A stretch of DNA of 64,000 nt from Thermoproteota archaeon (GTDB lineage Archaea; Korarchaeota; JAOZGF01; JAOZFZ01), in NCBI GenBank assembly GCA_027492035.1, contig JAOZFT010000020.1, positions 64,001 through 128,000 on the forward strand, written 5' to 3'. The position numbers were made by a program, and so were the translations under genes. The notes beneath the pieces are model-generated. The model was not told the DNA's origin. It searched no databases and saw nothing but the letters and a program-made list of their open reading frames with translations. Below are positions 2,619-26,359 of the stretch, one piece after another. Positions within the stretch are counted from its first letter, which is position 1. The number at the start of each line of letters is the position of its first letter.

Positions 2619-3239
2619 ATGAAAACGGTTTTCATACGTCCAGAGAGATGTATAGGCTGTAAACATTGCGAAATTGCTTGTGCTATCGAACATTCCAAGT
2701 CCAAGGAACTCTTCACTGCAATTTTGGAGGAACCCACGCCAGCCCCAAGGATACATGTGTTACCAACTATTGGCATAATGACTTTCCCGGATAAATGCCG
2801 ACACTGCAACCCTGCCCCTTGTATGCAGGTCTGTCCAACAGGTGCAATAACTAGAAATAAAGAAATTGACACAGTGTTAATTAATGGAAACAGGTGTATA
2901 GCTTGTGGAATGTGTGGAATCGTTTGTCCCTTTGATGCTATATCCTATAAAAGAAGCTGGGAAATCTCTATCGAACGGGAAGTAGCATTGAAATGTGACA
3001 ACTGTGTGGACAGATTAATGAAAGGCTTTGAACCAGCCTGTGTTGAAGCATGCAAAACAAATGCTTTATCATGGGGTGAAATTGAAGAGGTAATGAGGGA
3101 GGAAAGGAAGAAAATTGCAGAAAAAATCGCGATTGCAACAACATCTGCTGAGGAACTTCTAGAGAAACCTGTGCCTGAAAATATTAAGTTGTGGCGTGAT
3201 TTGGGGCTGGTGATAAAGAAGTTAGGTGAGAAAGGATGA
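2619..3239 (+). CDS. cooF: CO dehydrogenase electron-transfer 4x[4Fe-4S] protein
   Basis: Four Cys clusters (CIGCKHCEIAC, CRHCNPAPC..VC, CIACGMCGIVC, KCDNC..PACVEAC); directly upstream of cooS. Confidence 0.92.
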   Translation: MKTVFIRPERCIGCKHCEIACAIEHSKSKELFTAILEEPTPAPRIHVLPTIGIMTFPDKCRHCNPAPCMQVCPTGAITRNKEIDTVLINGNRCIACGMCGIVCPFDAISYKRSWEISIEREVALKCDNCVDRLMKGFEPACVEACKTNALSWGEIEEVMREERKKIAEKIAIATTSAEELLEKPVPENIKLWRDLGLVIKKLGEKG

Positions 3240-5116
3240 AGGAGTTAAATGTCATTAAAAAAAGGTCAAATGACCCTGCAGCGCAAAAAATGCTCGAAGT
3301 AACTGCGGAAGAGCATATCCAAACTGCCTGGGACAGGTTAGAACTGCAACAGCCTCAATGCGGTTATGGTCAACTGGGAATCTGTTGCAGAAACTGTGGA
3401 ATGGGACCGTGTAGGATTAACCCCTTCGGGGAAGAGCCTCAGAGAGGTGTTTGCGGCGCTACAGCTGATACAATAGTTGCACGTAACTTAGCAAGGATGA
3501 TTGCTGGTGGAGCTGCAGCCCACTCAGACCATGGCAGGGATATAGTTGAAGTACTTCATCTCACAGCCCTTGGGAAAGCTCAAGGGTACAAAATAACTGA
3601 TGTCGAAAAATTGAAAAGAGTAGCTAAGGAGTACGGAGTAGCTGTTGATGGGAGAAAACCTGAAGAAATAGCGAAAGAGTTAGCGGAAGAAGTAATGAAA
3701 GAGTTTGGTATGGTAAAGGGAAGAATCCAATTCGTTGAAAGGGCGCCTGAGAAAAGGAAAGAGGTTTGGAAGAAGCTCGGTGTCTTGCCTAGAGGGGTTG
3801 ATAGGGAAATTGTGGAAATTATGCACAGGACACATATCGGCGTTGACGCTGACTATGTGAATATTCTGCTCCACGGCTTAAGAGCATCTATTTCTGACGG
3901 GTGGGGTGGTTCAATGATTGCTACTGAACTTAGCGACATTCTTTTCGGCACCCCTAAACCAATAGAAAGTGTAATGAATCTAGGGGTTCTGAAAAAAGAT
4001 ATGGTCAACGTCATCGTTCATGGACACAATCCTGTATTGTCTGAAATGGTTGTAAAGGCTTCTAGCGACCCGGAATTAGTTGAATTAGCTAAGAAAAAAG
4101 GTGCAAAGGGAATTAATGTTGTCGGTATATGTTGCACAGCAAATGAGTTGTTGATGCGTCAAGGGATTCCGATTGCGGGTAACTTCTTACATCAAGAACT
4201 AGCAATAGCAACAGGGGCTGTTGAAGCGATAGTGGTTGATTACCAATGCATCATGCCTATACTTCCCCACATTGCTAAGTGTTATCACACTAAAGTTATA
4301 ACAACTGCAGCGAAAGCTAAGATACCGGGTGCTCTGCACATAGAATTTGAACCTGAACACGCATATGAGGTTGCTAAAAAAATCGTTAAAGAAGCTGTTG
4401 AAGCATATGGATCAAGAAACCCAGACAGAGTCAGAATTCCAGATGTTACAATGAAGGTGATGGCTGGTTTTTCAGCTGAAGCTATATTGCAAGCTTTGGG
4501 TGGAACGCCGAAGCCGTTAATTGATGCAATAAAAACTGGTAAAATAAGAGGTATAGCAGCTATTGTGGGCTGTAATAACCCAAAAATTAAACAGGACTAT
4601 AACCACGTAACATTAACAAAACTCCTTATCAAAAACAACATTCTTGTAGTTGAAACAGGGTGTGCAGCCATTGCCAACGGCAAAGCTGGTTTACTCGTTC
4701 CTGAAGCAGCAGATCAAGCTGGAGAAGGACTTAAGGAAGTATGTAAATCATTAGGTATACCTCCAGTACTGCACATGGGTTCATGTGTAGACATTAGCAG
4801 AATCCTTGTTTTAGCTGCAGCTGTTGCAAAAGAGTTAAATGTAGACATCAGCGACTTACCTGTGGCAGGTGCAGCACCTGAATGGATGTCGGAGAAAGCA
4901 GTCAGTATTGGTGCGTACGTTGTTTCTTCCGGTATTTTCACAGTGCTAGGGCCCATTCCTCCAGTGCTTGGAAGCATGAAAGTGGCAACCCTCCTCACTA
5001 AAGATTTAGAGAAAGTAATTGGAGCAGTTTTTGCAGTTGATCCTGACCCTGAAAAAGAGGCTCGACTAATAATAAACCATATAGAAAAGAAAAGGAAAGC
5101 GTTGGGGTTATCTTAA
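3236..5116 (+). CDS. cooS: Anaerobic Ni,Fe carbon-monoxide dehydrogenase catalytic subunit
   Basis: D/B cluster QPQCGYGQLGICCRNCGMGPC; C-cluster ligands HGHNP, GICCT, DYQC, VGCNN, TGCAA, MGSCVD and MSEKA lysine all present. Confidence 0.97.
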   Translation: MKELNVIKKRSNDPAAQKMLEVTAEEHIQTAWDRLELQQPQCGYGQLGICCRNCGMGPCRINPFGEEPQRGVCGATADTIVARNLARMIAGGAAAHSDHGRDIVEVLHLTALGKAQGYKITDVEKLKRVAKEYGVAVDGRKPEEIAKELAEEVMKEFGMVKGRIQFVERAPEKRKEVWKKLGVLPRGVDREIVEIMHRTHIGVDADYVNILLHGLRASISDGWGGSMIATELSDILFGTPKPIESVMNLGVLKKDMVNVIVHGHNPVLSEMVVKASSDPELVELAKKKGAKGINVVGICCTANELLMRQGIPIAGNFLHQELAIATGAVEAIVVDYQCIMPILPHIAKCYHTKVITTAAKAKIPGALHIEFEPEHAYEVAKKIVKEAVEAYGSRNPDRVRIPDVTMKVMAGFSAEAILQALGGTPKPLIDAIKTGKIRGIAAIVGCNNPKIKQDYNHVTLTKLLIKNNILVVETGCAAIANGKAGLLVPEAADQAGEGLKEVCKSLGIPPVLHMGSCVDISRILVLAAAVAKELNVDISDLPVAGAAPEWMSEKAVSIGAYVVSSGIFTVLGPIPPVLGSMKVATLLTKDLEKVIGAVFAVDPDPEKEARLIINHIEKKRKALGLS

Positions 5117-5163
5117 CCCCTAAACTCCTTTTTTTTATTTTTTTTTGAGAAGGAAGATGGGAA

Positions 5164-6414
5164 ATGAGAATTGTTGTTATAGGAACTGGAGGAGCTGGAG
5201 TCAGTGCAGTTGAGGCAATAAGGGAGTATGATAAAGACTCAGAAATATTTATGATATCACGTGAAAACACTCCTCCCTATTCTCCATGTGTTCTTGTAGA
5301 TTACTTTCAGCGAAAAGAAGAAATAGATAAGTTGTTTTGGAAGGGTGAAGATTTCTACAAAAAAATGGATGTTACCCCCCTCTTGGGTAAAGTAGTTAAC
5401 AAAATCAATACAAAAAATAAAAAGATTTCCTTTAACGAAGAAACCCTTGACTACGACAAACTGCTTATTGCTGCAGGAGGTAAAGTAACTCTTCCACCCT
5501 TAAAAGGACTGAACAAAAAAGGGGTCTTCACTTTTAAAACACTTGAAGATGCTGACAAAATCCGGGAATGGATTAAAAAAGGTAAAGTTGAGAAAGGTGT
5601 TGTGATAGGTGGAGGGTTTATAGGTTTAGATGCAGCCATGTGCCTTACAAGTTACGGGGTAAAAGTGACTGTGGTTGAAGCTCTTAACAGGTTGTTACCA
5701 AGGATGCTTGATTACGAAATGGGTACACTCGTGAAAGAAATAGTGGAAAGGAATGGAGTGGCAGTAGTTGTTAATGGCAGAGTTAATGAAATAGTTGGCG
5801 AGGAAAAGGTTGAGAAAGTAAAGTTTGAAAAGGGAGAAGTCTTAGATGCAGAAATAGTAGTAATGGCTACAGGTGTAAAACCAAACACAGAAGTAGTTGA
5901 AGGAACTGATATAAAATTTAATGGCAGGAGGGGAGTGGTTGTAAATGAATACATGGAAACAAGTGTTAAAGACGTTTATGCAGCAGGAGACATTGTTGAA
6001 TCAATTGACATCGTTACAGGGGAGAAAAAACCTATTCTGCTTTGGTCAAACGCTTTGTTGCAGGGTGCAATTGCCGGATATAACCTGATAGGAAGGAAAG
6101 TGAAGTATTTAGGGTCAACAAACCAAACCATAATTAAAGTTTTCAACGTACCCGTTGTTTCAGATGGCAATTATATAGGTGAGGAAATAAAACTTTTCAG
6201 CAGGGACGTGTACAAGAAAATGTACATTAAAAATAACAGGATTTACGGTTACATGTTAATAAACACTAAAAAGAATGCTGGACTTTATAACTCTTTAATG
6301 GTCAGCAAAAAAGACATTTCAGAGTTTAAAGATTTCCTTTTAACTGACGAATTCAATTACGGTAAACTTGTAACTAAAGCAATTACTTTAGAGAAAGAGA
6401 CTTACCAATATTGA
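5164..6414 (+). CDS. FAD-dependent NAD(P)H oxidoreductase (NirB/rubredoxin-reductase-like, CODH-associated FNOR)
   Basis: GxGxxG FAD (IGTGGAG) and NAD (IGGGFIG) motifs, YSPC, TSVKDVYAAGD; inside the coo operon. Confidence 0.9.
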   Translation: MRIVVIGTGGAGVSAVEAIREYDKDSEIFMISRENTPPYSPCVLVDYFQRKEEIDKLFWKGEDFYKKMDVTPLLGKVVNKINTKNKKISFNEETLDYDKLLIAAGGKVTLPPLKGLNKKGVFTFKTLEDADKIREWIKKGKVEKGVVIGGGFIGLDAAMCLTSYGVKVTVVEALNRLLPRMLDYEMGTLVKEIVERNGVAVVVNGRVNEIVGEEKVEKVKFEKGEVLDAEIVVMATGVKPNTEVVEGTDIKFNGRRGVVVNEYMETSVKDVYAAGDIVESIDIVTGEKKPILLWSNALLQGAIAGYNLIGRKVKYLGSTNQTIIKVFNVPVVSDGNYIGEEIKLFSRDVYKKMYIKNNRIYGYMLINTKKNAGLYNSLMVSKKDISEFKDFLLTDEFNYGKLVTKAITLEKETYQY

Positions 6415-6479
6415 TAGGTTTCCTTCTTCACATTAAAACCACTTAAAAAAGAGCCGGTAAAGTTTCAGAAGGGTAAAGC

Positions 6480-7409
6480 ATGAACAAAAATAGCATCTCA
6501 ACCAAGAAAATTCAAAGCTTAAGAAAAGAAACTAAGAAGGTAGTTGAAGCAATAAAGAAAATGGGTGGACAGGGTGCAAAAAAGGATGAAGGGTTTAAAG
6601 TGGTTATAACAGGGAAAGGGGGAGCTGGTAAAACCACAATCACCGCTTTCTTAGCTAGGTTGTTTGCCAAGAAAGGGTATAAAGTGTTAGCTGTAGATGA
6701 AGACCCGCAAATGAACCTACCATTTGCTATAGGCATTTCTCCAGATGAAGCAGCGTCAATAACCCCACTCAGCAGAAACTTGGATTATATAGAAGAGAAA
6801 ACAGGCGCTAAACCAGGTTCAGGCTGGGGACTGCTGTTAAGGCTGAACCCTGACGTGGAAGACGTAGTTGACAGATTCGGAGTTACAGGTCCAGACAATG
6901 TTAATTTACTTGTTATGGGCACTGTGGTGCAAGCCGCAACAGGTTGCCTGTGTCCAGAAAACGCTTTACTTGAAGCTGTAATGAATTATATAGTGCTAAG
7001 GGAGAAAGAAATTGTTTTAATGGATACTCAAGCTGGAATGGAACATTTCGGCAGAGCAATAGCTCGAGGCTTCTCTCAAGCCTTAATAGTCACAGATCCC
7101 TCCTTTAATTCTGTTCAAGTATCTCTAAACCTTGCCAAACTAGCTAAACAACTCAACATAAAAAATATACATTTGGTGATAAATAAGGTAAGGAACCGGA
7201 AAGAGGAGATAAAGGTAAATAAATACTTAAAAACAATGTCTAACATAAGGTTTGATACAGTAACTGTTATACCCTTCGACCCTGTATTGTTGGAGGTAGA
7301 GCCCAGCGTAGAACCCTTTATTACAGAAAAGGAATATTCTTTGGTAACATGGAAAATGATTGATTTAATGGAAACATTAGAGAAATATGCCTTTAAAAAA
7401 GGTAGATAA
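6480..7409 (+). CDS. cooC: CO dehydrogenase nickel-insertion ATPase
   Basis: GKGGAGKTT, D.DP..NL, Ni-binding GCLCPEN, D.QAGMEHFGR. Confidence 0.92.
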   Translation: MNKNSISTKKIQSLRKETKKVVEAIKKMGGQGAKKDEGFKVVITGKGGAGKTTITAFLARLFAKKGYKVLAVDEDPQMNLPFAIGISPDEAASITPLSRNLDYIEEKTGAKPGSGWGLLLRLNPDVEDVVDRFGVTGPDNVNLLVMGTVVQAATGCLCPENALLEAVMNYIVLREKEIVLMDTQAGMEHFGRAIARGFSQALIVTDPSFNSVQVSLNLAKLAKQLNIKNIHLVINKVRNRKEEIKVNKYLKTMSNIRFDTVTVIPFDPVLLEVEPSVEPFITEKEYSLVTWKMIDLMETLEKYAFKKGR

Positions 7410-10525: not shown

Positions 10526-10894
10526 AACCTTTAGAGAGAAACATAAGAGCTTCTTTCCCATTCTTTCACGCAGCAGCCTTTATTGAAAGATTAAAAGTAG
10601 TAAGGAGGCTCTTTTAAGTTTTAAACGCTTAAACTAAAAATACAAGTTAAAAACAGAACAGAGACCTTACGGTACCTGAAACATTAGGTAAGAGAATTAG
10701 GAAAGGTAAAAATGTGGTTAGTTCCGTTCCCATGTCAAAAAGTTTCTCAATTAAACCAAGGGGAGAAGACCTACGTCACCAATTGCTATCAAATCCCAAA
10801 AAGGTTAGCAAAGTCAAAATACTGAGGGAAGTACTTTAAAGAAAGGAAAAAATTAAATTCTTTTTTTGCCTACACTTCTGAGGGAGGTGTTTTT

Positions 10895-12385
10895 ATGGGT
10901 TTTAAACTTGGAGGTGTAAACCCTGCTTTGGTGACTCCTTTCACTAAAGAAGGGGAACTTGATTTAAAAGCTATGGAGAAACTTTTAAAGTTTGTTATAT
11001 CACAGGGCGTAAACGGGGTTGTTCCATGTGGCTCCACGGGGGAATTTACTTACCTCTCTGTTGAGGAAAGGAAGAAATTATTAGAGTTTGTAATAGAGGA
11101 AACTAAAAAAATTGATTCAAAGGTTAAAGTTATAGCTGGTACAGGAGGAAGCAGTACAAAAGAAGCTTTAGAAATGACTAAATTCGCCGAAAAAAGGGGG
11201 GCTGACGCTGTATTGGTTTGCTCCCCCTACTATTTCAAAGTTTCAAATAGGAACCTGTATAACCACTACTACTGCATAGCCCAAGAAACAAGTATCCCAA
11301 TCATAATTTATAACATTCCTCAACTTACAGGTAACAGCATAGACTGGAGAATAATTGAAGACTTAGCTCAACTAGACAATATTGTGGGTTTAAAGGACAG
11401 CAGTGGGAACATGTCTTACTTAATGACTTGTTTAGAAAAGGCAGGTGACAAAATAAATATTGTATGTGGCTGGGATGAAATAGTTTTCCCAGCCTTAGCT
11501 GCAGGCGCAAGTGGAATGATACTTGCAAGTGCAAACATTCTGCCAGATATTTGGGTTGAAATCTATAACAAAATGAAACAAAGCAAGTTAGAGGAAGCTA
11601 GAAAGCTTCAATTCAAAATACAAAAAATTCTGAGGTTAATTGTTAAAAGCGGTGCAGTTGGGGTTAAATCTGCTTTAAAAATGATGGGTTTAAATGTTGG
11701 AAAAAGCCGCAACCCCTTAGCACTCGGTGGAGAACTGAGTTATGAAGACAAGGAAGAATTAAGGATTGAACTGGAGAAACTTGGAAAAATTGAAAAAGAA
11801 AAAGTTGAAATGGAAATTAAGCCAGGGGCTCCATTGGAAAAAAGGTTTGGTGCAATTGGTATTACTCCGAAAAAAATTAAAGATTTCAGTTTAAAAATAG
11901 GTGAAGCCTTATCAGGTTCAGAACCTGAAGTAGCTCACATAGAGGTTTTAATAGGTGAAAAAAATGGTCCAGTAGGAGAAGCATTCGCTAAGGCGAAAGC
12001 AGCCCCCTCCCCTGGACATGAGCCACTGATAGCTATTCTTGAGCCTAATTTGCCGGTTAAGCCAGCAACCTTAATAATACCCACCGTTAAAATTAAGAAT
12101 TTAAGGTCTGCATCTCTTATTTACGGTGCAGCCCAGGCAGCTGTTGCTAAAGCTGTAGCAGACACTGTTAAAGAAGGTTACATACCTGAAGAAGAAGCAG
12201 ATAATTTACTAATTCTGGCAAGTGTTTTCATTCATCCAGCAGCCGTTAACAGGCAGAGAATATACATTAATAACTACAAAGCAATGAGACATGCGTTGAG
12301 ACGCGCTATAGAAAACAGGCCAAACATAAGCGAAATACTAAATGACAAAGAAAAAGCCAAGCATCCCCTCAAGTATGAACCCTAA
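10895..12385 (+). CDS. Fusion of a DapA/class I aldolase domain with a formaldehyde-activating enzyme (Fae, H4MPT hydro-lyase) domain
   Basis: N-terminal ~300 aa: GSTGEF, IIYNIP, Schiff-base GLKDSSG. C-terminal ~165 aa: IGEAL..EVAHI, GH.P...L.PNL.VKP.T, GAAQAAVAKAVAD, VFIHP.A, NYKA, all Fae motifs. Confidence 0.9.
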   Translation: MGFKLGGVNPALVTPFTKEGELDLKAMEKLLKFVISQGVNGVVPCGSTGEFTYLSVEERKKLLEFVIEETKKIDSKVKVIAGTGGSSTKEALEMTKFAEKRGADAVLVCSPYYFKVSNRNLYNHYYCIAQETSIPIIIYNIPQLTGNSIDWRIIEDLAQLDNIVGLKDSSGNMSYLMTCLEKAGDKINIVCGWDEIVFPALAAGASGMILASANILPDIWVEIYNKMKQSKLEEARKLQFKIQKILRLIVKSGAVGVKSALKMMGLNVGKSRNPLALGGELSYEDKEELRIELEKLGKIEKEKVEMEIKPGAPLEKRFGAIGITPKKIKDFSLKIGEALSGSEPEVAHIEVLIGEKNGPVGEAFAKAKAAPSPGHEPLIAILEPNLPVKPATLIIPTVKIKNLRSASLIYGAAQAAVAKAVADTVKEGYIPEEEADNLLILASVFIHPAAVNRQRIYINNYKAMRHALRRAIENRPNISEILNDKEKAKHPLKYEP

Positions 12386-12759: not shown

Positions 12760-14298
12760 TTAACTTCTTTTGTTTTGGGCGAGGTGCTTTATTGTTTCAT
12801 AAGTTTGGAATTCTGGCGCGAGTGAGTCGTAAATTTTAAATTTATCGAACGAAAGAATTTTTGCATCTACACCCATTGTGCCTCCGTGGATAGGGTAAAC
12901 AAATGTAACTTCCTTACGTGTAAAGAAATTGTCAGCTAACGTTAAAAACATCCTTTGCTCCTCCTTACTTAAGTTTTGGCTAAATACTCCCAAGGGAGTT
13001 TTTGTTGTTGCAGCCCAATCTATAAACGCAAACACCGGAACGTTGCCTAACTTTTGTTTAACAATATCTAATCTTTTGCTCCATTTCTCTTCATCAAGCT
13101 CCATTTTCTTTACTTCCTTAACTGAAGGGCTTAATGTGACAAAGTCAAGGTTTGGGGGAGAGTAAGGGTACATTGCTGCACTTAACCAACTGCCAACATA
13201 AACATACTTACCTTTTAATTTTCCATAATCGTGGATTTCGTCCACAATTTTACAAGCTGCTTCGTAACTTTCCTTTACTGCAGAGTGGTTAATGTTTTTT
13301 GTGATCTTAAGAAGCAGATTTGCCTGAGCAAAAAGCATGTCAACCCATATAGCATCTGCACCTGCATCAATTTGTTTCTCTGCCCAGCTTATGAGAAGCC
13401 TTTGAAACCTTGGGTTTGTTATGTCTGGAAAATACGCTGCAGCCTCTTCCGGGCTGTAAAGGCTGCAATCTAAATCTTTAGAAACCCATAATTGTTTTTT
13501 GCCGAATTCACATTGAAATTCCTCCTTTGATACATTAACTCCCCATTTTTGAGGGTCTAGAGCAAGATCCCATGTTTGGGGATACCCTATAATTTCTCCT
13601 GTTTCCGGGTTCCAAACAGCCCCTCTATGGATTATTTGCGCTGGAACTGCTCCGCAAATAATCACGTCAGGCATCTCCGCCTTTATTTCAGAAATTGTTT
13701 TTTCAAGTTTTTCGTAGCTGTAACCGCTGAATTCACATCTCCATCTTGCTTTCTGTGAAGAAAGTTCATTACATTTATTTGGGCAGGGGTTCCACCTCCA
13801 AAAAGCCCTGAAAATAAAGTCCGTCCTTGTCTCTTTGAACAAGCTTATCATTTCCTCTGTGCTTCTGTCTACAACTGCACCGTCAGTTATTCTCTCATAC
13901 AGAGAAGCAACCCTAACTCTTCTTAATTTCTCCTTCGCTTTAACTTCTAATTCTTTGTAGCTTTGGTTTTGTTGAGTTTGAGGTAGTTTTTCAATTTTCA
14001 AAATCTCAACAGGTACCCACATTTGAATAGTGACTACGTCTTTCCTCACTTTTGCTTTGAAATTTATTCTTAAACCGTCTTCTCTAAATTCATCTGGTAA
14101 ATTTAAGGGGTAATATTTTTCACCCTTATCTGTTACAACTCCGTAGAATCCTCCCTCTAAAGGAACATATTTTACTGTACCAGTTAATTCAATGATTCCT
14201 TGCCCTCCCTGAAACGTGCAGCCCAGCAACAGTATCGTCAATAGAAAACCTATGGTAGCCAAAGCTCTGTTTTTTATTCCCCTCTCCTCCAAATTCAT
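12760..14298 (-). CDS. Putative lipoprotein: small beta domain plus glycoside-hydrolase-like TIM barrel
   Basis: Hydrophobic signal ending in lipobox-like LLLGC; GTVKYVPLEGGFYG small domain; PDITNP.F..LL..WA.KQIDAGADAIWVD resembles GH-type barrels. Confidence 0.6.
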   Translation of the reverse strand: MNLEERGIKNRALATIGFLLTILLLGCTFQGGQGIIELTGTVKYVPLEGGFYGVVTDKGEKYYPLNLPDEFREDGLRINFKAKVRKDVVTIQMWVPVEILKIEKLPQTQQNQSYKELEVKAKEKLRRVRVASLYERITDGAVVDRSTEEMISLFKETRTDFIFRAFWRWNPCPNKCNELSSQKARWRCEFSGYSYEKLEKTISEIKAEMPDVIICGAVPAQIIHRGAVWNPETGEIIGYPQTWDLALDPQKWGVNVSKEEFQCEFGKKQLWVSKDLDCSLYSPEEAAAYFPDITNPRFQRLLISWAEKQIDAGADAIWVDMLFAQANLLLKITKNINHSAVKESYEAACKIVDEIHDYGKLKGKYVYVGSWLSAAMYPYSPPNLDFVTLSPSVKEVKKMELDEEKWSKRLDIVKQKLGNVPVFAFIDWAATTKTPLGVFSQNLSKEEQRMFLTLADNFFTRKEVTFVYPIHGGTMGVDAKILSFDKFKIYDSLAPEFQTYETIKHLAQNKRS

Positions 14299-14518: not shown

Positions 14519-15778
14519 TTAGTCTGTATTCACTCCCGTAGCATTTTTTAAGTTTTCTTTCAACTTAAAGGGGACCATACCCTTTCCCACTATTTCTTCC
14601 CTTAGTTTAAGCATCATTTCAGGCACATCTATTTCCATTGGGCAATGTTTCTTGCATCTTCCACATAATGTACATGTATACGCTATTGGAGCTGCTTTTT
14701 CCAGTCCTCCCAGTAAGAATCTGGTAAGAATAGCCCCTATGCCTCCCATGTAAACGTGGCCAAAATACCCTGAAACTAATGAATAAACTGGGCATTCATA
14801 CAGGCATCCTCCACATCTGAGGCAGTAAAGTGCCTGTCTGTAGACGGGGTCTTTAGCCATTTCCTTTCTTCCATTATCGAGAAGCACTAGATGAAATTCT
14901 TTTGGCCCATGTGCACCGTAAACAATTTTTTTCTCTATGTCTCCTGTTTTGCTTGGGCCTGAGACAATGCTAACATAAGTTGGTGCTTTATAGTTTGCGT
15001 ATCTTGTCACTACTTCAACAAGTAACATGGCGTCTGAAAGAGTTGGAATGACCTTCTCTATTCCTGCAACCACGATGTGTTTTTCAGGTAAACCTGAGAC
15101 AAGCCTTGCATTCCCTTCGTTTTCGATTATGAAGACAGACCCTGTTTCAGCTACAACTGCGTTAGCTCCTGTTAATCCCACATCTGCCTCTACAAATTTT
15201 TGTCTAAGGTAATTCCTTACTTCCTTAACAAGTATAGGGATTTCTGCCGGTAACTTTTTTCCTGTGATTTTTGAAAGCAGTTTTGCCACTTTCTCCCTTG
15301 GAATGTGGATGGCTGGTGAAAGTAAGTGCATAGGTTTACTTTTCAGCTGTTGAATTATGAACTCACCAAGATCTGTTTCAAAAACTTTGCAACCTATTCT
15401 CTCTAGTTCACTGTTAATGTTTAGTTCCTCCATGGTTAAGCTTTTAGACTTAACAACAGTTTCAGCCCCTTTAACTACGCTTTTAACATATTCTAAAGCC
15501 TTATAAGCATTTTCAGCCATGTAAAAGTTTCCCTTAAGATCTTCAACAACGTCTCTCGTTTGCTTAATTAATTCCTCAATTCTTAGAAGCGAATTCTTTT
15601 TTATTTTTCTGAGTTTAGAGGCTTTCCTTTCTACGTAAGGGTAAAGTTTGAAGGCTTCGTCTCTGTTTCTTCTATATGACTCAATAGCTCTTTCAAGAGC
15701 TGTTCTAAGTGAACTGTTGCGGGCGGCAGAGCCAAGCTTTCTTAAGTAGGAATTATAAATTTCATCGTTAACAGACAA
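14519..15778 (-). CDS. lutB: Lactate utilisation protein B-like (LUD domain + 2x[4Fe-4S])
   Basis: VKSKS...EE, ETDLGEFI, ENEGNARL, SGPSKTGDIE...GAHGP, CLRCGGCLYECPVY, CTLCGRCKKHCP. Confidence 0.88.
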   Translation of the reverse strand: MSVNDEIYNSYLRKLGSAARNSSLRTALERAIESYRRNRDEAFKLYPYVERKASKLRKIKKNSLLRIEELIKQTRDVVEDLKGNFYMAENAYKALEYVKSVVKGAETVVKSKSLTMEELNINSELERIGCKVFETDLGEFIIQQLKSKPMHLLSPAIHIPREKVAKLLSKITGKKLPAEIPILVKEVRNYLRQKFVEADVGLTGANAVVAETGSVFIIENEGNARLVSGLPEKHIVVAGIEKVIPTLSDAMLLVEVVTRYANYKAPTYVSIVSGPSKTGDIEKKIVYGAHGPKEFHLVLLDNGRKEMAKDPVYRQALYCLRCGGCLYECPVYSLVSGYFGHVYMGGIGAILTRFLLGGLEKAAPIAYTCTLCGRCKKHCPMEIDVPEMMLKLREEIVGKGMVPFKLKENLKNATGVNTD

Positions 15779-15805
15779 AAATGGGCACCTCTTAATTAGA
15801 AAAAA

Positions 15806-16540
15806 TTAGGTGAGGAACCTAATTAAGAGACCGGAAACATTGGTTACTTTCATTTCCCTGTTCAAGAAGATGTCGACAGCCCTCCTAATTGTTAAGATAC
15901 ATTGGGGACAAGCAGTAACAATAAGTTTCAGGTCTTTAGGGATTTCATCCTCAATTATAAGTTTCCTTGCGGCTATTTTAACTGAAAGAGTAGGGAAAAA
16001 AGAAGCTAGAAGTCCTCCTCCACCGCAACAAATAGATTTTTCCTTTGTATATTTAGGTTTGTAAAGCTTTACATTTGGAATTAAAGAAATTATTTTTCTA
16101 GGTTCCTCGTAAACCTCCATGTGTCTACCAAGTTCGCAAGGGTCGTGGTACATTACTTTCTCTTCCTCTAAGTGTTTAAATTTAGGTTTAATTTTCCCCT
16201 TCTTAATCAGCCCCCAAAGAAACTGTGTAACATGAACTACACCAGGTTTAATTTTCAAACCTAACTTTGACATGTAGAATTCTTTAAAGGCTCTTTGACA
16301 GGCGGGGCAAGGAGTAACAACTAAATTAAACCTATTCAGTGTTTCAATAATTTCTTTAGCGTTTTTCTTTGCTTTATTTCTGAAGCCACCTATTATTAAA
16401 GGGAATCCACAGCATAATTCCTCTTCCAAAGTGGTAACTTCAATATTTAGTTTGTTGAAGAGGGTAAAAATGTTATTAAGGTCATTAGGCAAATTTTTTC
16501 TATAATTGCAGCCCTGCCATAAAAGAACCTTTTTAACCAA
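15806..16540 (-). CDS. CCG-domain Fe-S protein (LutA/GlcF/HdrB-like)
   Basis: Two CCG motifs (CCGFP...CPAC; YHDPC.LGR...CCGGGG...CPQC); upstream of lutB on the same strand. Confidence 0.85.
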   Translation of the reverse strand: MVKKVLLWQGCNYRKNLPNDLNNIFTLFNKLNIEVTTLEEELCCGFPLIIGGFRNKAKKNAKEIIETLNRFNLVVTPCPACQRAFKEFYMSKLGLKIKPGVVHVTQFLWGLIKKGKIKPKFKHLEEEKVMYHDPCELGRHMEVYEEPRKIISLIPNVKLYKPKYTKEKSICCGGGGLLASFFPTLSVKIAARKLIIEDEIPKDLKLIVTACPQCILTIRRAVDIFLNREMKVTNVSGLLIRFLT

Positions 16541-22876: not shown

Positions 22877-24457
22877 TTAAAACAAGTCATAATCTTGCAA
22901 GTAGCTCCTACCTGTTTTTAAAGCTATTTCGGCTTTGTTAAGTTCCTTTCCAAGGTATGCAGCATGAGGAAGGAGGGTAACTAACCCTCTTTTAATTGCT
23001 TCCATATACACATCTACAGACTTTTCTCCCCTGATTATAACATCAGGTTTCTCCCTGTTCCGGAAACTGTAATGTTGCAAAACTATTTCCCTCCTTTCCC
23101 TGTCAACATTTATTTTAAAGAAACCTTTTGGGTCTATGGGTGTCTTATATTGTTTTTCAGCCTTTACAACCTTAACTTCATTCTCTATTGCAGGGTTATA
23201 CAGAAGTTCTTTACTTCTCTTTTCTTTAAAGAAAAGGAGATTTATGGCTAAGTCTTTAGGAAAGGTTCCCCTCTTTCTTGAAATATAAATCATTTTGGAA
23301 GCTTTAATTAATTCCTTCACTGCTCCTTTACATTTATTGCTTTGTTCAGTAGTTAAAACCAAGTTTATACTTAATTCATTCATTATTGCTGCGAGGATAG
23401 CGTTTACACCTATTGAGTCAGCATCTATTGTTTCTGTTATGTTTCCAACTCCGCAAAAGAGCATTTTTTCCGGATGCTTCCTGTGAAAAGTTTTGAATGT
23501 GATTAATGAATCTGTTAAATTCGGCATGTTGACAGGGTTTAAGATTAAGTCGCAAAGGAAATTTTTCACTCCTTCCTCCCTTGCTTTTTCAATGTTTTCC
23601 TCCATAACTTCTATTTTTTCATTTATCTCCACAGGAAAAATCCCTTTTTTGTAATTATACGGTATTATTACAGCAGGTGTTTCCCCTAAGTAACTGGCAA
23701 CCTCTTCTATGTTTCCCCCTTCCAAACTCACCACTAAATCTATACCCTCCTCTACTGCAGCCTTTATTTCCTTAGAAGAAACTGTGTCAATACTTAAGGG
23801 TGCATTACAAACTTTTCTTAAAAAATTAATCAGCTCCTTTACTTTTTCAGGTTTCTCCATGCCTGAAACCATGCCTATATCTATTATGTGGGATCCAGAG
23901 TTTAAGTAATGTTTAACTTTTCTAATTAACTCTTCCTTAGACAATAAGGGGGCGTCAACTATTTCTGCTGCCACCTTAAATGGAAGTCTTTGATCAATGA
24001 CAACTTTACCCCCAATAACAAATGCTTTTTCCTTGTTCAGTAACTCTTTTTCAAGTTTCTTTATTTCATAAAGTTCAGAGGAGGCTTCTTCCTTCCTCTT
24101 TAAATGTAAAATTTCACAGGCTGGAGTTACAGTTGAAAACTTGATTTTCCCCTGTTTAAAAAGGTTAAGAATTTCTCCTAAATCTGTTGATAATTTAGGT
24201 CCCTTAAAAACAGGTAAACCTAGTTTTTCCCCTATCTCCTTTGTGTCTCCCTTAATTAATCCTGGGACCAAAATTAAATCAAAACCACGCCCTCTTAAGT
24301 CCTCCTTCTCCAGTTGTTTAATAATGTTTTTTATGGGAATTAATGAAGCTACGTCAAAAGGCAGAGTTTTAATTTCATAATCTACCTCGCTCCTCTTTAC
24401 ACTTTCATGAACAGACTTCTCGGCCAGTTTACCTGTTACAAGCAACACCTTCAACAT
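22877..24457 (-). CDS. Archaeal dihydropteroate-synthase-like protein with C-terminal DUF4346-like domain
   Basis: VTGKLAE N-terminus, AEIVDAP, IIDIG, SIDT, GVGNITETIDADSIGVNA, HAAYLGKEL.KAEIAL..GRSY.QD; clustered with mptA and dmrX. Confidence 0.85.
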   Translation of the reverse strand: MLKVLLVTGKLAEKSVHESVKRSEVDYEIKTLPFDVASLIPIKNIIKQLEKEDLRGRGFDLILVPGLIKGDTKEIGEKLGLPVFKGPKLSTDLGEILNLFKQGKIKFSTVTPACEILHLKRKEEASSELYEIKKLEKELLNKEKAFVIGGKVVIDQRLPFKVAAEIVDAPLLSKEELIRKVKHYLNSGSHIIDIGMVSGMEKPEKVKELINFLRKVCNAPLSIDTVSSKEIKAAVEEGIDLVVSLEGGNIEEVASYLGETPAVIIPYNYKKGIFPVEINEKIEVMEENIEKAREEGVKNFLCDLILNPVNMPNLTDSLITFKTFHRKHPEKMLFCGVGNITETIDADSIGVNAILAAIMNELSINLVLTTEQSNKCKGAVKELIKASKMIYISRKRGTFPKDLAINLLFFKEKRSKELLYNPAIENEVKVVKAEKQYKTPIDPKGFFKINVDRERREIVLQHYSFRNREKPDVIIRGEKSVDVYMEAIKRGLVTLLPHAAYLGKELNKAEIALKTGRSYLQDYDLF

Positions 24458-24513
24458 TTTCTACCTCTTATTGTTTGTTCTTTACCAATGCTTTCTAAAC
24501 CTTGCCTAAGCCT

Positions 24514-25269
24514 TTACGTCTCCAGTATTTCATTGATTTTAGTTAGCAACCTGGTAGGTTCTTCAACAACCACTACTCCCTTCATTTTTCTTAGTTTATT
24601 AACGTTTTCAACATCTACTTCTCTAGTTTCTATTTTTGCTTTCTCCCAACAAGCTACTGCTTGGAAGGGACATGCTGAAACACATTTTTCGCAGCCTATA
24701 CATTTCAAAAGATTTATTTTTGGGCCTTCCTTGGTTGATTCTATAGCCTCAACCGGACAGTTTGTTAAGGCCGTGCATTCCTTACAGTTTAAACATTTTT
24801 CGCGTTTGATTATGCAAGGAAGCGTAATTTCTGTTTCTCCCAGCTTTGAATCCACAGGTAAAACAATCACTGGAACTTTGCCTTTCAAAGCTTGGGCGAA
24901 AGCATTTGTAACACATGTGTCAGCCACTCCATTAACCATTTTAGCGACGGAGTTTGCTGTAACAGGTGAAACAGCAAAAACTTTGTATTTTCTTAGATTG
25001 AAACGGCCTGAAAAAACTCCACTAGCCCCATCTGTTTCTCTGCTTACCAATTCTTCGTAATAAAGGCCTGGGGAAATTTTCTTAATTTTATCTCTTAAAC
25101 CGTACATTCTGAGAATCTCTAACCCTGCTTCACTAACGAAGGTAGTTACTTTTACACCGTACTTTTGTTTAATCCCCAACATTATTTGGTAGGTTTCGAA
25201 AAGAAAAGTTCCTGAACCTGTAACTCCCCAGGCAAGCTTCAATTCTTCCCTCAATACTTCACCCCTCAA
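24514..25269 (-). CDS. dmrX: Dihydromethanopterin reductase (flavoprotein with 2x[4Fe-4S])
   Basis: AWGVTGSG, SP.TANSVAKMV.GVADT.VTN flavoprotein motifs plus CLNCKEC and CIGCEKCVSACP. Confidence 0.82.
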   Translation of the reverse strand: MRGEVLREELKLAWGVTGSGTFLFETYQIMLGIKQKYGVKVTTFVSEAGLEILRMYGLRDKIKKISPGLYYEELVSRETDGASGVFSGRFNLRKYKVFAVSPVTANSVAKMVNGVADTCVTNAFAQALKGKVPVIVLPVDSKLGETEITLPCIIKREKCLNCKECTALTNCPVEAIESTKEGPKINLLKCIGCEKCVSACPFQAVACWEKAKIETREVDVENVNKLRKMKGVVVVEEPTRLLTKINEILET

Positions 25270-25420
25270 ATTTTAAACCAACAAATGCTTTTAAGACCAT
25301 TTTTAAATCCTTAAATGCTTCAATTGTTCTTCTAAAGGAATAAATAAGGGAGTTAAAAGTCATTACGGAAGTAGCTTATTTCAGGTTTTTAATGGTTTGA
25401 GAGATCACTTCCGAAAAAAA

Positions 25421-26359
25421 TTATTTTAACTCAAATTCCTTTCTCAACTGTTCTAAAGTAGCATGGTACTCAGCCACTAAGTTATGTTCATGAATGCTCT
25501 CTAAGTCTTCTTGAATAAGGGAAACTTCTGTTTCATCAGGTAAATTCGGGAATTTATCAATTACTCCCTTCGCCATGTACCTTATCACATCCTCAGCAAA
25601 CCTTGCTTTCTTCACAGCTTGCTTAACAACTTCAATTTCATCTTTCTTCTTCAATAATTCAAAAGTTGGGGCACTCATTGCATTCCTTGCTATCTCGATC
25701 AGTGTGTAAGCATTAACAGAATAATTCCCTGGAACCTCAACCACTAACGTAGCGTAGCTTCGCTGCATGTGGGTTGCAATAAACAGTTTTTCAACAAGCT
25801 TCTTCACTTTTTCTTCATTCCCTATATCCCTCTTTAAAGAATCCATTGTCTCCAAGAGAATGCTTTTCTGGGCGCTGGGGCAAGCAGTTATCCCGCTTAC
25901 TTTAACCCCTACAGCCTTCTTTATTTTTATTTTCTTTTTTATCCTTTCAGCTTTAGCAGATCCTAGAAGTACAGCTCTTTCAAATGTCTCCTTCCCTGTT
26001 ACAGGTGTTTCAGTAGGATAAACCACATCACCTTGTAAAATAACTTCCGCCTTTCTACAGTAAGGATGCTTCTGCAAAAGCTCCTTTGCCACTCTGCTGC
26101 AGAAAACTTCAATTTTCAATTTTTTCTTTGCATACCTTGAAAGAACCTCAACTATGGCTTCATAATTCCTTGAAGCATGGATTCCGCGGTAGTCAGGAAC
26201 TAAGTCAATGAAAGCAGAGACAGAAGGGACAAAAGCTGCTGTTTTATGGTTTATGTCGATAGAAAAAACAGGCACTCTAATATTTTCAACACCAACCCTT
26301 TTAAGATAAATACGAAACAAAGGTTTCTCAACATTTACGTCTGAAATGAGGGAAGGCAA
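25421..26359 (-). CDS. mptA: GTP cyclohydrolase MptA (FolE2 family)
   Basis: L.RVGV, RGIHASR, GITACP, ATHMQRS, MSAP..ELLK..DE, FAED..R, ESIHEHN. Confidence 0.9.
   Translation of the reverse strand: MPSLISDVNVEKPLFRIYLKRVGVENIRVPVFSIDINHKTAAFVPSVSAFIDLVPDYRGIHASRNYEAIVEVLSRYAKKKLKIEVFCSRVAKELLQKHPYCRKAEVILQGDVVYPTETPVTGKETFERAVLLGSAKAERIKKKIKIKKAVGVKVSGITACPSAQKSILLETMDSLKRDIGNEEKVKKLVEKLFIATHMQRSYATLVVEVPGNYSVNAYTLIEIARNAMSAPTFELLKKKDEIEVVKQAVKKARFAEDVIRYMAKGVIDKFPNLPDETEVSLIQEDLESIHEHNLVAEYHATLEQLRKEFELK

Follow-up and report, generated by a model that had tools for sequence, protein, structure and literature searches.

A DHDPS-family aldolase fused to formaldehyde-activating enzyme in Bathyarchaeia and other archaea: a candidate formaldehyde-handling pyruvate aldolase

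What reaction would an enzyme catalyze that carries, on a single polypeptide, a pyruvate-type aldolase and a formaldehyde-activating enzyme (Fae)? The question is raised by a 64,000-nucleotide (nt) stretch of the genome of a Thermoproteota archaeon (contig JAOZFT010000020.1, positions 64,001–128,000; hereafter the window), in which an open reading frame (ORF) at 10895–12385 on the + strand joins an N-terminal barrel of the dihydrodipicolinate synthase (DHDPS) family to a C-terminal Fae domain, in one frame and with zero stops or frameshifts between the halves (ORF list and sequence). Homologues of this protein are named 4-hydroxy-tetrahydrodipicolinate synthase (DapA) in the source databases. 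An initial annotation of the locus proposed instead that the aldolase makes or cleaves a formaldehyde adduct of pyruvate, and that the formaldehyde is channeled to tetrahydromethanopterin (H4MPT). We find that the fusion is real and widely conserved, and that its barrel is more likely to be an intact Schiff-base aldolase with a role other than that of DapA. The reading that we tentatively prefer, with a probability of roughly 0.45, is a class I pyruvate aldolase that would make or cleave 4-hydroxy-2-oxobutanoate while exchanging formaldehyde with H4MPT via its own Fae domain.

Conservation and ancestry of the fusion

Both Pfam domains occur together in all 120 of the homologues listed (58–99% identity, ~492 aa). 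In a pattern scan of species-representative prokaryotic genomes (one for each species), at least 599 candidate stretches were recovered, and relatives of the fusion are encoded by at least 526 of them; the best 80 of the at least 526 comprise 76 titled Bathyarchaeota or Bathyarchaeia and 4 from Asgard archaea (Atabeyarchaeia, Hermodarchaeota, and "Promethearchaeati"). Fused clusters labeled Thorarchaeota are also present in the ESM Atlas, as found in a look-up with one of the homologues (P0063), and the gene is encoded by three complete chromosomes (CP147780.1, OY970072.1, and CP070754.1). In an even draw of 151 Bathyarchaeia genomes (at least 85% complete; the class of locus L066), 42 encode a full-length fusion and 6 a partial or broken one among the matches listed, these being hand counts over the 150 matches listed, with 223 weaker ones beyond; one genome of the sample has a tandem fusion pair. 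Among 43 species genomes of the source phylum, the full fusion is encoded by the source genome (G000) and by its closest relative (G001), a fragment by a 71%-complete genome (G002), and two diverged tandem copies by each of two others (G003 and G004); it was not found in the remaining 38. The fusion is therefore a real gene, beyond chance or assembly artifact. The initial annotation had allowed for such an artifact, a concern that the 120 fused homologues and the recurrence on three complete chromosomes remove, and the survey of domain architecture that it had suggested traces the fusion mostly to Bathyarchaeia, with few Asgard and few source-phylum genomes.

Phylogenies of the two halves were quick IQ-TREE maximum-likelihood runs, unrooted and with support from the Shimodaira–Hasegawa-like approximate likelihood ratio test (SH-aLRT) only. 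In the aldolase tree (52 domains), the 30 fused sequences lie on one side of a single branch (SH-aLRT 98), 16 stand-alone paralogues that share the motif YNVPKFTG form another clade (SH-aLRT 99), and the Escherichia coli references fall outside, on long branches. In the Fae tree, 30 fused and 15 canonical domains are split with an SH-aLRT of 100. Placement of the barrel within its family, which the initial annotation had named as a check on its proposal, succeeded in part: the fused barrels form a clade of their own apart from E. coli DapA, NanA, and YagE, but the sister group of that clade is unsettled because of the long branches of these references. The topologies fit one old fusion whose halves were kept together and which may later have spread among Bathyarchaeia, Asgard archaea, and the source phylum, a single-fusion history that unrooted quick trees do not prove.

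Variant copies were observed at several loci. Tandem pairs of diverged DHDPS–Fae genes are located at L104:7002–9685 (G004 contig C44), L125 (G003 contig C158), and L110 (G062 contig C13); the Fae domain of one member of the pair is truncated in both G003 and G004 (profile positions 13–135), and in the truncated copy of G003 a Tyr replaces the conserved His. The arrangement suggests hetero-oligomers or sub-functionalization. Broken-looking copies in the 151-genome sample are those of L140 (G190), with a frameshift between the halves, L141 (G124), with an internal gap of ~85 residues, and L142 (G148), with a frameshift and stop codons.

The aldolase half and the name DapA

There is a straightforward case for the public annotation, according to which the protein is a genuine 4-hydroxy-tetrahydrodipicolinate synthase to which a Fae domain has been added. 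The N-terminal half scores 243.8 bits on TIGR00674 (dapA), above the cut-off of 206.15, and its top matches in the PDB, both by sequence and by fold, are DHDPS structures, led by 2yxg of M. jannaschii (E 2.7e-53; target-normalized TM-score of 0.95 with Foldseek). The catalytic machinery of the family is also retained: K167 (the Schiff-base lysine, on barrel strand 6), Y139, Y113, and S47/T48 of the fusion match Lys161, Tyr133, Tyr107, and Thr44 of DapA, and alignment shows that the pyruvate-binding GxTGE motif is kept. The initial annotation had described a single ORF with an intact aldolase barrel and a complete Fae domain bearing the histidine of an EVAHI motif, and the ORF list, Pfam, and the alignments agree with that description.

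The residue by which DapA recognizes its second substrate is nonetheless absent. Arg138 of DapA anchors aspartate semialdehyde via its carboxylate. Arginine occupies this position in E. coli DapA and in M. jannaschii 2yxg; in all 30 of the fused sequences aligned it is replaced, by Leu, Cys, Val, Thr, or Ala (Leu144 in the fusion of the window), and Leu is likewise found in E. coli NanA and YagE (alignment with sequences taken from the K-12 record).

The lysine pathway of the organism also speaks against a DapA function. In the source genome (93% complete), the best score for dapB is 36 bits against a cut-off of 122, and lysA has no match; LysW is present, adjoining a LysY/ArgC-like gene, and this pair, with dapB and lysA missing, indicates synthesis of lysine via the aminoadipate carrier-protein route. 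dapB is above its cut-off in none of five further fusion genomes, three of which are complete chromosomes. In the Bathyarchaeia sample, dapB is encoded by 41 of 151 genomes, that is, by 1 of 42 fusion-bearing genomes vs. 40 of 109 others, an anticorrelation that may partly stem from shared ancestry rather than function, since the sampled genomes share kinship and cross-tabulations of them are not independent samples. Neither dapB nor asd occurs within the 30 kb examined around the fusion, which bears out over that distance the lack of dapB/asd neighbors remarked on in the initial annotation; asd is encoded on another contig.

A score above the dapA cut-off carries little weight here, as the model over-calls in this lineage: a stand-alone DHDPS-family paralogue with no arginine scores equally high. 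This gene, protein P0121 (G000 contig C20:38752–39618, equivalent to locus L005:5744–6637), was recovered when the genome was searched for another dapA or dapB, as the initial annotation had proposed; it is a second DHDPS-family gene, and no dapB came with it. The paralogue has 242.1 bits on the dapA model and a Phe at the Arg138 position (YNVPKFTG), and it belongs to the clade of 16 such paralogues, drawn from Bathyarchaeia and the source phylum; it is probably another mislabeled aldolase. It is situated 9.5 kb from the stand-alone Fae gene of the source genome, with genes for a 2-oxoacid:ferredoxin oxidoreductase and Hdr-like proteins between them. Taken together, the replaced arginine, the lysine genes, and the equally high score of the Arg-less paralogue make it highly improbable that the fusion is a genuine DapA, and a different role for its intact barrel more likely.

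The Fae half and the proposed reaction

The C-terminal half has the marks of a full-length Fae domain, with 203.8 bits on PF08714 (cut-off 27; profile positions 1–158 of 159) and 203.1 bits on the NCBIfam Fae-domain model TIGR03126 (cut-off 118); its nearest solved structure by sequence is 1y5y. It is 54% identical to the stand-alone Fae of the source genome. The conserved histidine of Fae is catalytic, and it is kept in all 26 main-family fused sequences, as in all 15 canonical Fae sequences. On NF009833, the model for the fusion of Fae to hexulose-6-phosphate synthase (Fae-Hps), only the Fae part matches (187.9 bits vs. a cut-off of 274; profile positions 2–161 of 392), and Hps in the source genome is a separate gene on contig C1. 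The fused Fae domain thus looks competent. The carrier would also be at hand: the three methanopterin genes of the window (22877–26359, - strand; Table 1) indicate that the source organism makes the carrier of Fae, and methenyl-H4MPT cyclohydrolase (Mch, 368 bits) is encoded elsewhere in its genome. By these genes (MptA with its partner genes, and Mch), the source organism is one that makes and uses H4MPT. The initial annotation had put the methanopterin genes 10–14 kb downstream, and they were found 10.5–14 kb downstream of the fusion.

The reaction that we propose joins the two halves. The N-domain would be a class I pyruvate aldolase of DapA descent from which the arginine that holds aspartate semialdehyde has been lost; with this loss, the barrel would act like a lyase of the NanA/YagE type. 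Pyruvate would be bound by Lys167 as a Schiff base, whose enamine would add to, or leave, a small aldehyde, while the C-domain would interconvert free formaldehyde and H4MPT with methylene-H4MPT. With pyruvate as the Schiff-base partner, the sole formaldehyde adduct would be 4-hydroxy-2-oxobutanoate, so that the net reaction would be 4-hydroxy-2-oxobutanoate + H4MPT <=> pyruvate + methylene-H4MPT. Formaldehyde would be passed from site to site and not let into the cell, following the same logic as in Fae-Hps. We favor capture of released formaldehyde as the direction, since the source genome has the usual aspartate route to homoserine; the label of a one-carbon (C1) entry route, given in the initial annotation, presumes a direction, and capture is at least as likely. 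An anabolic homoserine bypass of the aspartate route was considered and rejected as not needed, given that asd and homoserine dehydrogenase are encoded in the source genome.

Genomes that have both kinds of fusion argue for a formaldehyde-linked aldolase. The three complete chromosomes (two of Bathyarchaeia and one of an Atabeyarchaeum) encode both Fae-Hps and DHDPS–Fae, which implies that each aldolase-type partner has a private Fae; there would be little reason to keep another such Fae on another aldolase if the latter neither made nor used formaldehyde. The analogy with Fae-Hps drawn in the initial annotation was apt, and these genomes strengthen it. The probability of roughly 0.45 given above draws on this analogy and on the architecture of the protein. 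By analogy we infer formaldehyde as the aldol partner, and likewise which C4 compound is the substrate and which way the reaction runs in vivo.

Several observations weigh against this proposal, and some of them favor a larger substrate, for instance a 2-keto-3-deoxy sugar acid or its phosphate, cleaved to glycolaldehyde or glyceraldehyde, or else a 2-oxoacid donor other than pyruvate; Fae would then serve in the same pathway or complex and receive no formaldehyde from the aldolase. The invariant G-x-D194-E195 of the fused barrels matches the G-Y-D-E of NanA, and this motif, like the Leu at the Arg138 position, is common to the sugar-acid cleavers NanA and YagE. The G-Y-D-E residues of NanA presumably bind sugar hydroxyls and would suit a larger polyhydroxy aldehyde better than formaldehyde. 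In G001, a PfkB sugar kinase is encoded directly upstream of the fusion, hinting at a sugar-acid substrate, with a weak match to 2-keto-3-deoxygluconate (KDG) kinase (39.6 bits vs. a cut-off of 400). Structure prediction with AlphaFold2 (AF2) gave a model of the fusion with a mean per-residue confidence (pLDDT) of 80.3 and a predicted TM-score (pTM) of 0.75; pLDDT is mostly >90 in the barrel, only moderate in the Fae domain, and <50 at residues 304–333. As only one of five AF2 models is confident and the linker has a pLDDT <50, no defined interface or channel between the domains is supported; a Foldseek search found no solved structure spanning both domains. The Fae half has diverged, in that, of the 64 columns invariant in 15 canonical Fae sequences, 32 persist in 90% or more of the 26 fused ones, with fixed changes in otherwise invariant columns (T to E and K to T in 26/26, L to H in 23/26). 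To these may be added the possible share of common ancestry in the dapB pattern, noted above. According to PMC8879981, 4-hydroxy-2-oxobutanoate is not a native metabolite, and its aldolase reaction is known only from side activity. Neither a source nor a sink for it was identified in the source genome, and none of the results bears directly on the substrate.

A larger substrate remains rather unlikely in our view. The fusion reaches 153 bits of a cut-off of 390 as a KDG aldolase, 180 of 382 as NanA, and 205 of 397 as an HpaI-type aldolase (NCBIfam); the kinase is a neighbor in one genome, and a tRNA methyltransferase gene is downstream instead in 65 of 81 loci; moreover, such a substrate would leave the second private Fae of the Fae-Hps genomes without a reason.

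The divergence of the Fae half also bears on whether that half is catalytic. It could be a non-catalytic oligomerization scaffold, or a pterin-sensing regulator, of an aldolase of unrelated function, and for this reading one can cite the fixed substitutions, the keeping of half of the canonical invariant columns, and the truncated Fae copies of the G003 and G004 tandems, in G003 with Tyr for His. We regard it as distinctly unlikely, given the histidine kept throughout the main family, a score that, at 203 bits, lies well above the cut-off of 118 for the Fae equivalog domain, and the 54% identity to the Fae of the same genome. G001 argues against it as well, as the fused domain would be the sole Fae there. 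The source genome and the three complete genomes encode an additional canonical Fae or Fae-Hps besides the fusion; in G001 (94% complete), the fused domain is the sole Fae-family match.

A third possibility concerns the acceptor. PanB was not found in the source genome, and the overall chemistry of the proposal (a 2-oxoacid plus a carrier-bound C1 unit) is the same as that of PanB, so the fusion could substitute for PanB by adding the methylene group of methylene-H4MPT to 2-oxoisovalerate in the synthesis of pantoate and coenzyme A. The distributions speak otherwise: PanB is encoded by 1 of 43 genomes in the source phylum, namely G001, which also has the fusion, and 38 genomes are without both; in the Bathyarchaeia sample it is found in 21 of 42 fusion genomes vs. 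31 of 109 others. The two distributions are not complementary, and replacement of PanB was rejected; with the pyruvate-type active-site motifs kept as well, it has very little to recommend it. A literature search, with subscription journals and supplements outside its reach, found nothing on missing archaeal ketopantoate synthesis.

The initial annotation is therefore supported in part, namely in a real and conserved fusion, an intact aldolase that is more likely not DapA, and a Fae domain that looks competent, while formaldehyde as the aldol partner and 4-hydroxy-2-oxobutanoate as the substrate remain proposals. A more far-reaching version, in which the fusion would be a dedicated methylene-H4MPT:pyruvate hydroxymethyl transfer system making 4-hydroxy-2-oxobutanoate in many Bathyarchaeia, several Asgard lineages, and the source archaeon, is unlikely. 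If true, it would provide a direct C1 + C3 to C4 link from the archaeal Wood–Ljungdahl pathway to homoserine-family metabolites, and would be a natural counterpart of the engineered homoserine cycle, with 4-hydroxy-2-oxobutanoate as a true metabolite.

The quaternary structure may be uncommon too. Fae is a homopentamer, and enzymes of the DHDPS family are dimers or tetramers. The covalent joining of modules with these five-fold and two-fold symmetries implies an unusual assembly; a five-fold Fae linked to a two- or four-fold aldolase could form an unusually large symmetric, possibly cage-like, particle.

Genomic setting and comparison with known systems

The coordinates of the fusion, its domains and key residues, and the methanopterin genes are given in Table 1. 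Six residues of the interdomain segment (R317, F318, A320, I328, D330, and F331) are near-invariant in alignment A2.

Table 1. Positions, within the window, of the DHDPS–Fae fusion, its parts, and the methanopterin genes.
Feature	Position	Strand	Basis
Shine–Dalgarno-like purine-rich stretch GAGGGAGGTG, ending 5 nt ahead of the ATG	10880-10889	+	Read from sequence
DHDPS-family::Fae fusion, whole ORF, 496 aa + stop, ATG start	10895-12385	+	ORF list, Pfam, NCBIfam
DHDPS/NAL-family class I (Schiff-base) aldolase TIM barrel, residues 5-291	10907-11767	+	PF00701 E 1e-79
Tyr139, equivalent of DapA Tyr133 / NanA Tyr137	11309-11311	+	Alignment with E. coli DapA, NanA, YagE
Leu144, at the DapA Arg138 position	11324-11326	+	Alignments
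Lys167, Schiff-base lysine (DapA Lys161), in LKDSSG	11393-11395	+	Invariant in alignments A1 and A2
Interdomain segment, residues 292-334	11768-11896	+	Alignment A2, AF2
Fae domain, residues 335-492	11897-12370	+	PF08714 E 2.1e-60; TIGR03126; PDB 1y5y E 8e-33
His348 in EVAHI, conserved Fae histidine	11936-11938	+	Aligned to the same His of 1y5y
Dihydropteroate-synthase-like gene	22877-24457	-	TIGR00284, 378 bits vs. cut-off 257
Dihydromethanopterin-reductase-like gene	24514-25269	-	TIGR02700, 250.8 bits, just below cut-off 251.35
GTP cyclohydrolase MptA	25421-26359	-	276.8 bits vs. cut-off 220

The gene neighborhood was analyzed by clustering the ORFs of 80 related loci and the window (81 loci). 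The most frequent neighbor is a TrmI/GCD14 tRNA methyltransferase gene, downstream on the same strand in 65 of the 81; others that recur include two family-less proteins (58/81 and 50/81), a malate/lactate dehydrogenase, and an ADP-forming CoA ligase. The window's own neighbors are in none of the recurring clusters of the 81 loci, and elsewhere in the source phylum the context differs again, with the PfkB kinase in G001 and, beside the tandem pair of G004, a radical SAM/SPASM protein and MoaA. A conserved pathway neighborhood was rejected, the recurring neighbors being lineage synteny, and no operon partner that recurs across lineages was found in the 80 loci, the window, G001, and G004. The lack of a cross-lineage partner gene is expected if the fusion itself holds both functions.

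Within the window, a non-coding gap of 370 nt (10526–10894) lies between a small ferredoxin gene and the fusion, and no riboswitch or other RNA was detected upstream of the fusion (0 Rfam matches in the window). Further upstream (3236–7409, + strand) is a CO-oxidation module that begins with CooS, the catalytic subunit of anaerobic CO dehydrogenase (TIGR01702, 750 bits), followed by a pyridine-nucleotide-disulfide oxidoreductase and a CooC-like P-loop ATPase. The next ORF downstream of the fusion, encoded on the other strand (12760–14298, - strand), has 512 aa and a hydrophobic stretch near its N-terminus; neither Pfam nor NCBIfam matches it, and none of the 80 other loci was found to have a counterpart beside the fusion. 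Beyond it (14519–16540, - strand) are genes for a LUD-domain/4Fe-4S protein (LutB-like) and a CCG-domain protein (LutA-like), which resemble a lactate-utilization pair that would yield pyruvate; this pair is present only in the source genome's version of the locus.

The name given to the fusion has consequences in its own right. Hundreds of archaeal genomes have the fusion annotated as a 4-hydroxy-tetrahydrodipicolinate synthase, a name that is wrong on present evidence and that skews attempts to reconstruct how Bathyarchaeia and Asgard archaea make lysine; the Arg-less paralogue is mislabeled likewise. The anaerobic archaea that carry the fusion belong to lineages that are among the most abundant organisms of sediments. 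A second Fae fusion, to an unrelated aldolase and alongside Fae-Hps, suggests that these anaerobes have another C–C reaction in which formaldehyde is produced or consumed. Should pyruvate and formaldehyde prove to be its substrates, nature would already couple to a carrier a step for which synthetic methylotrophy relies on promiscuous enzymes, and a thermostable formaldehyde-channeling aldolase would be directly useful.

To our knowledge, Fae is otherwise known to be fused only to Hps, and the literature search described above found nothing on a DHDPS–Fae fusion, again with subscription journals and supplements outside it. In the available part of one survey of Bathyarchaeia, fae is treated as a generic gene for formaldehyde detoxification, with no mention there of dapA or of a fusion (PMC10321748). 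As judged from its sequence, DHDPS–Fae is a second kind of Fae–aldolase fusion, listed in the databases under a misleading name.

Among characterized enzymes, DapA (E. coli b2478; M. jannaschii 2yxg) comes nearest in both sequence and fold (37% identity; TM-score of 0.95), and shares the Schiff-base Lys, Tyr133, Tyr107, GxTGE, and a score above the TIGR00674 cut-off; unlike DapA, the fusion is without Arg138, its genome is without dapB and lysA, and it has an extra 200 residues. NanA (N-acetylneuraminate lyase) and YagE (2-keto-3-deoxy sugar acid aldolase) have the same Leu at the Arg138 position, G-x-D-E/D after strand 7, and the same Schiff-base machinery, and are reversible pyruvate lyases rather than synthases; however, they occupy separate long branches in the tree, the fusion scores far below the nanA cut-offs, and their aldehyde products are C6 or C2–C3 sugars, not formaldehyde. 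Hydroxymethyltransferases such as PanB and GlyA resemble the proposed system in net reaction, since a C1 unit of formaldehyde oxidation level would be exchanged between its carrier and a carbon nucleophile; in those enzymes, however, the pterin carrier binds at the active site itself, whereas the fusion consists of two separate catalytic modules and has no sequence relation to them.

RhmA belongs to the class II metal aldolases and has a different fold. In E. coli it promiscuously catalyzes pyruvate + formaldehyde <=> 4-hydroxy-2-oxobutanoate, a reaction used in a synthetic homoserine cycle (PMC8879981). This is the same reaction as that proposed for the fusion, except that in RhmA it is a side activity in an engineered pathway, with free formaldehyde and no carrier. 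The nearest natural parallel is Fae-Hps of methanogens and other archaea, in which an aldolase-type enzyme is likewise the covalent partner of Fae: formaldehyde is set free by Hps as ribulose-5-phosphate is synthesized, and the fused Fae has been proposed to capture it at once as methylene-H4MPT (PMC5241800). The partner in DHDPS–Fae differs, being a Schiff-base barrel of the DHDPS/N-acetylneuraminate lyase (NAL) family rather than the unrelated, metal-dependent Hps, which resembles orotidine monophosphate (OMP) decarboxylase; Fae is C-terminal here and N-terminal in Fae-Hps; and the fused Fae of DHDPS–Fae, a fusion known from sequence alone, forms its own clade with fixed substitutions.

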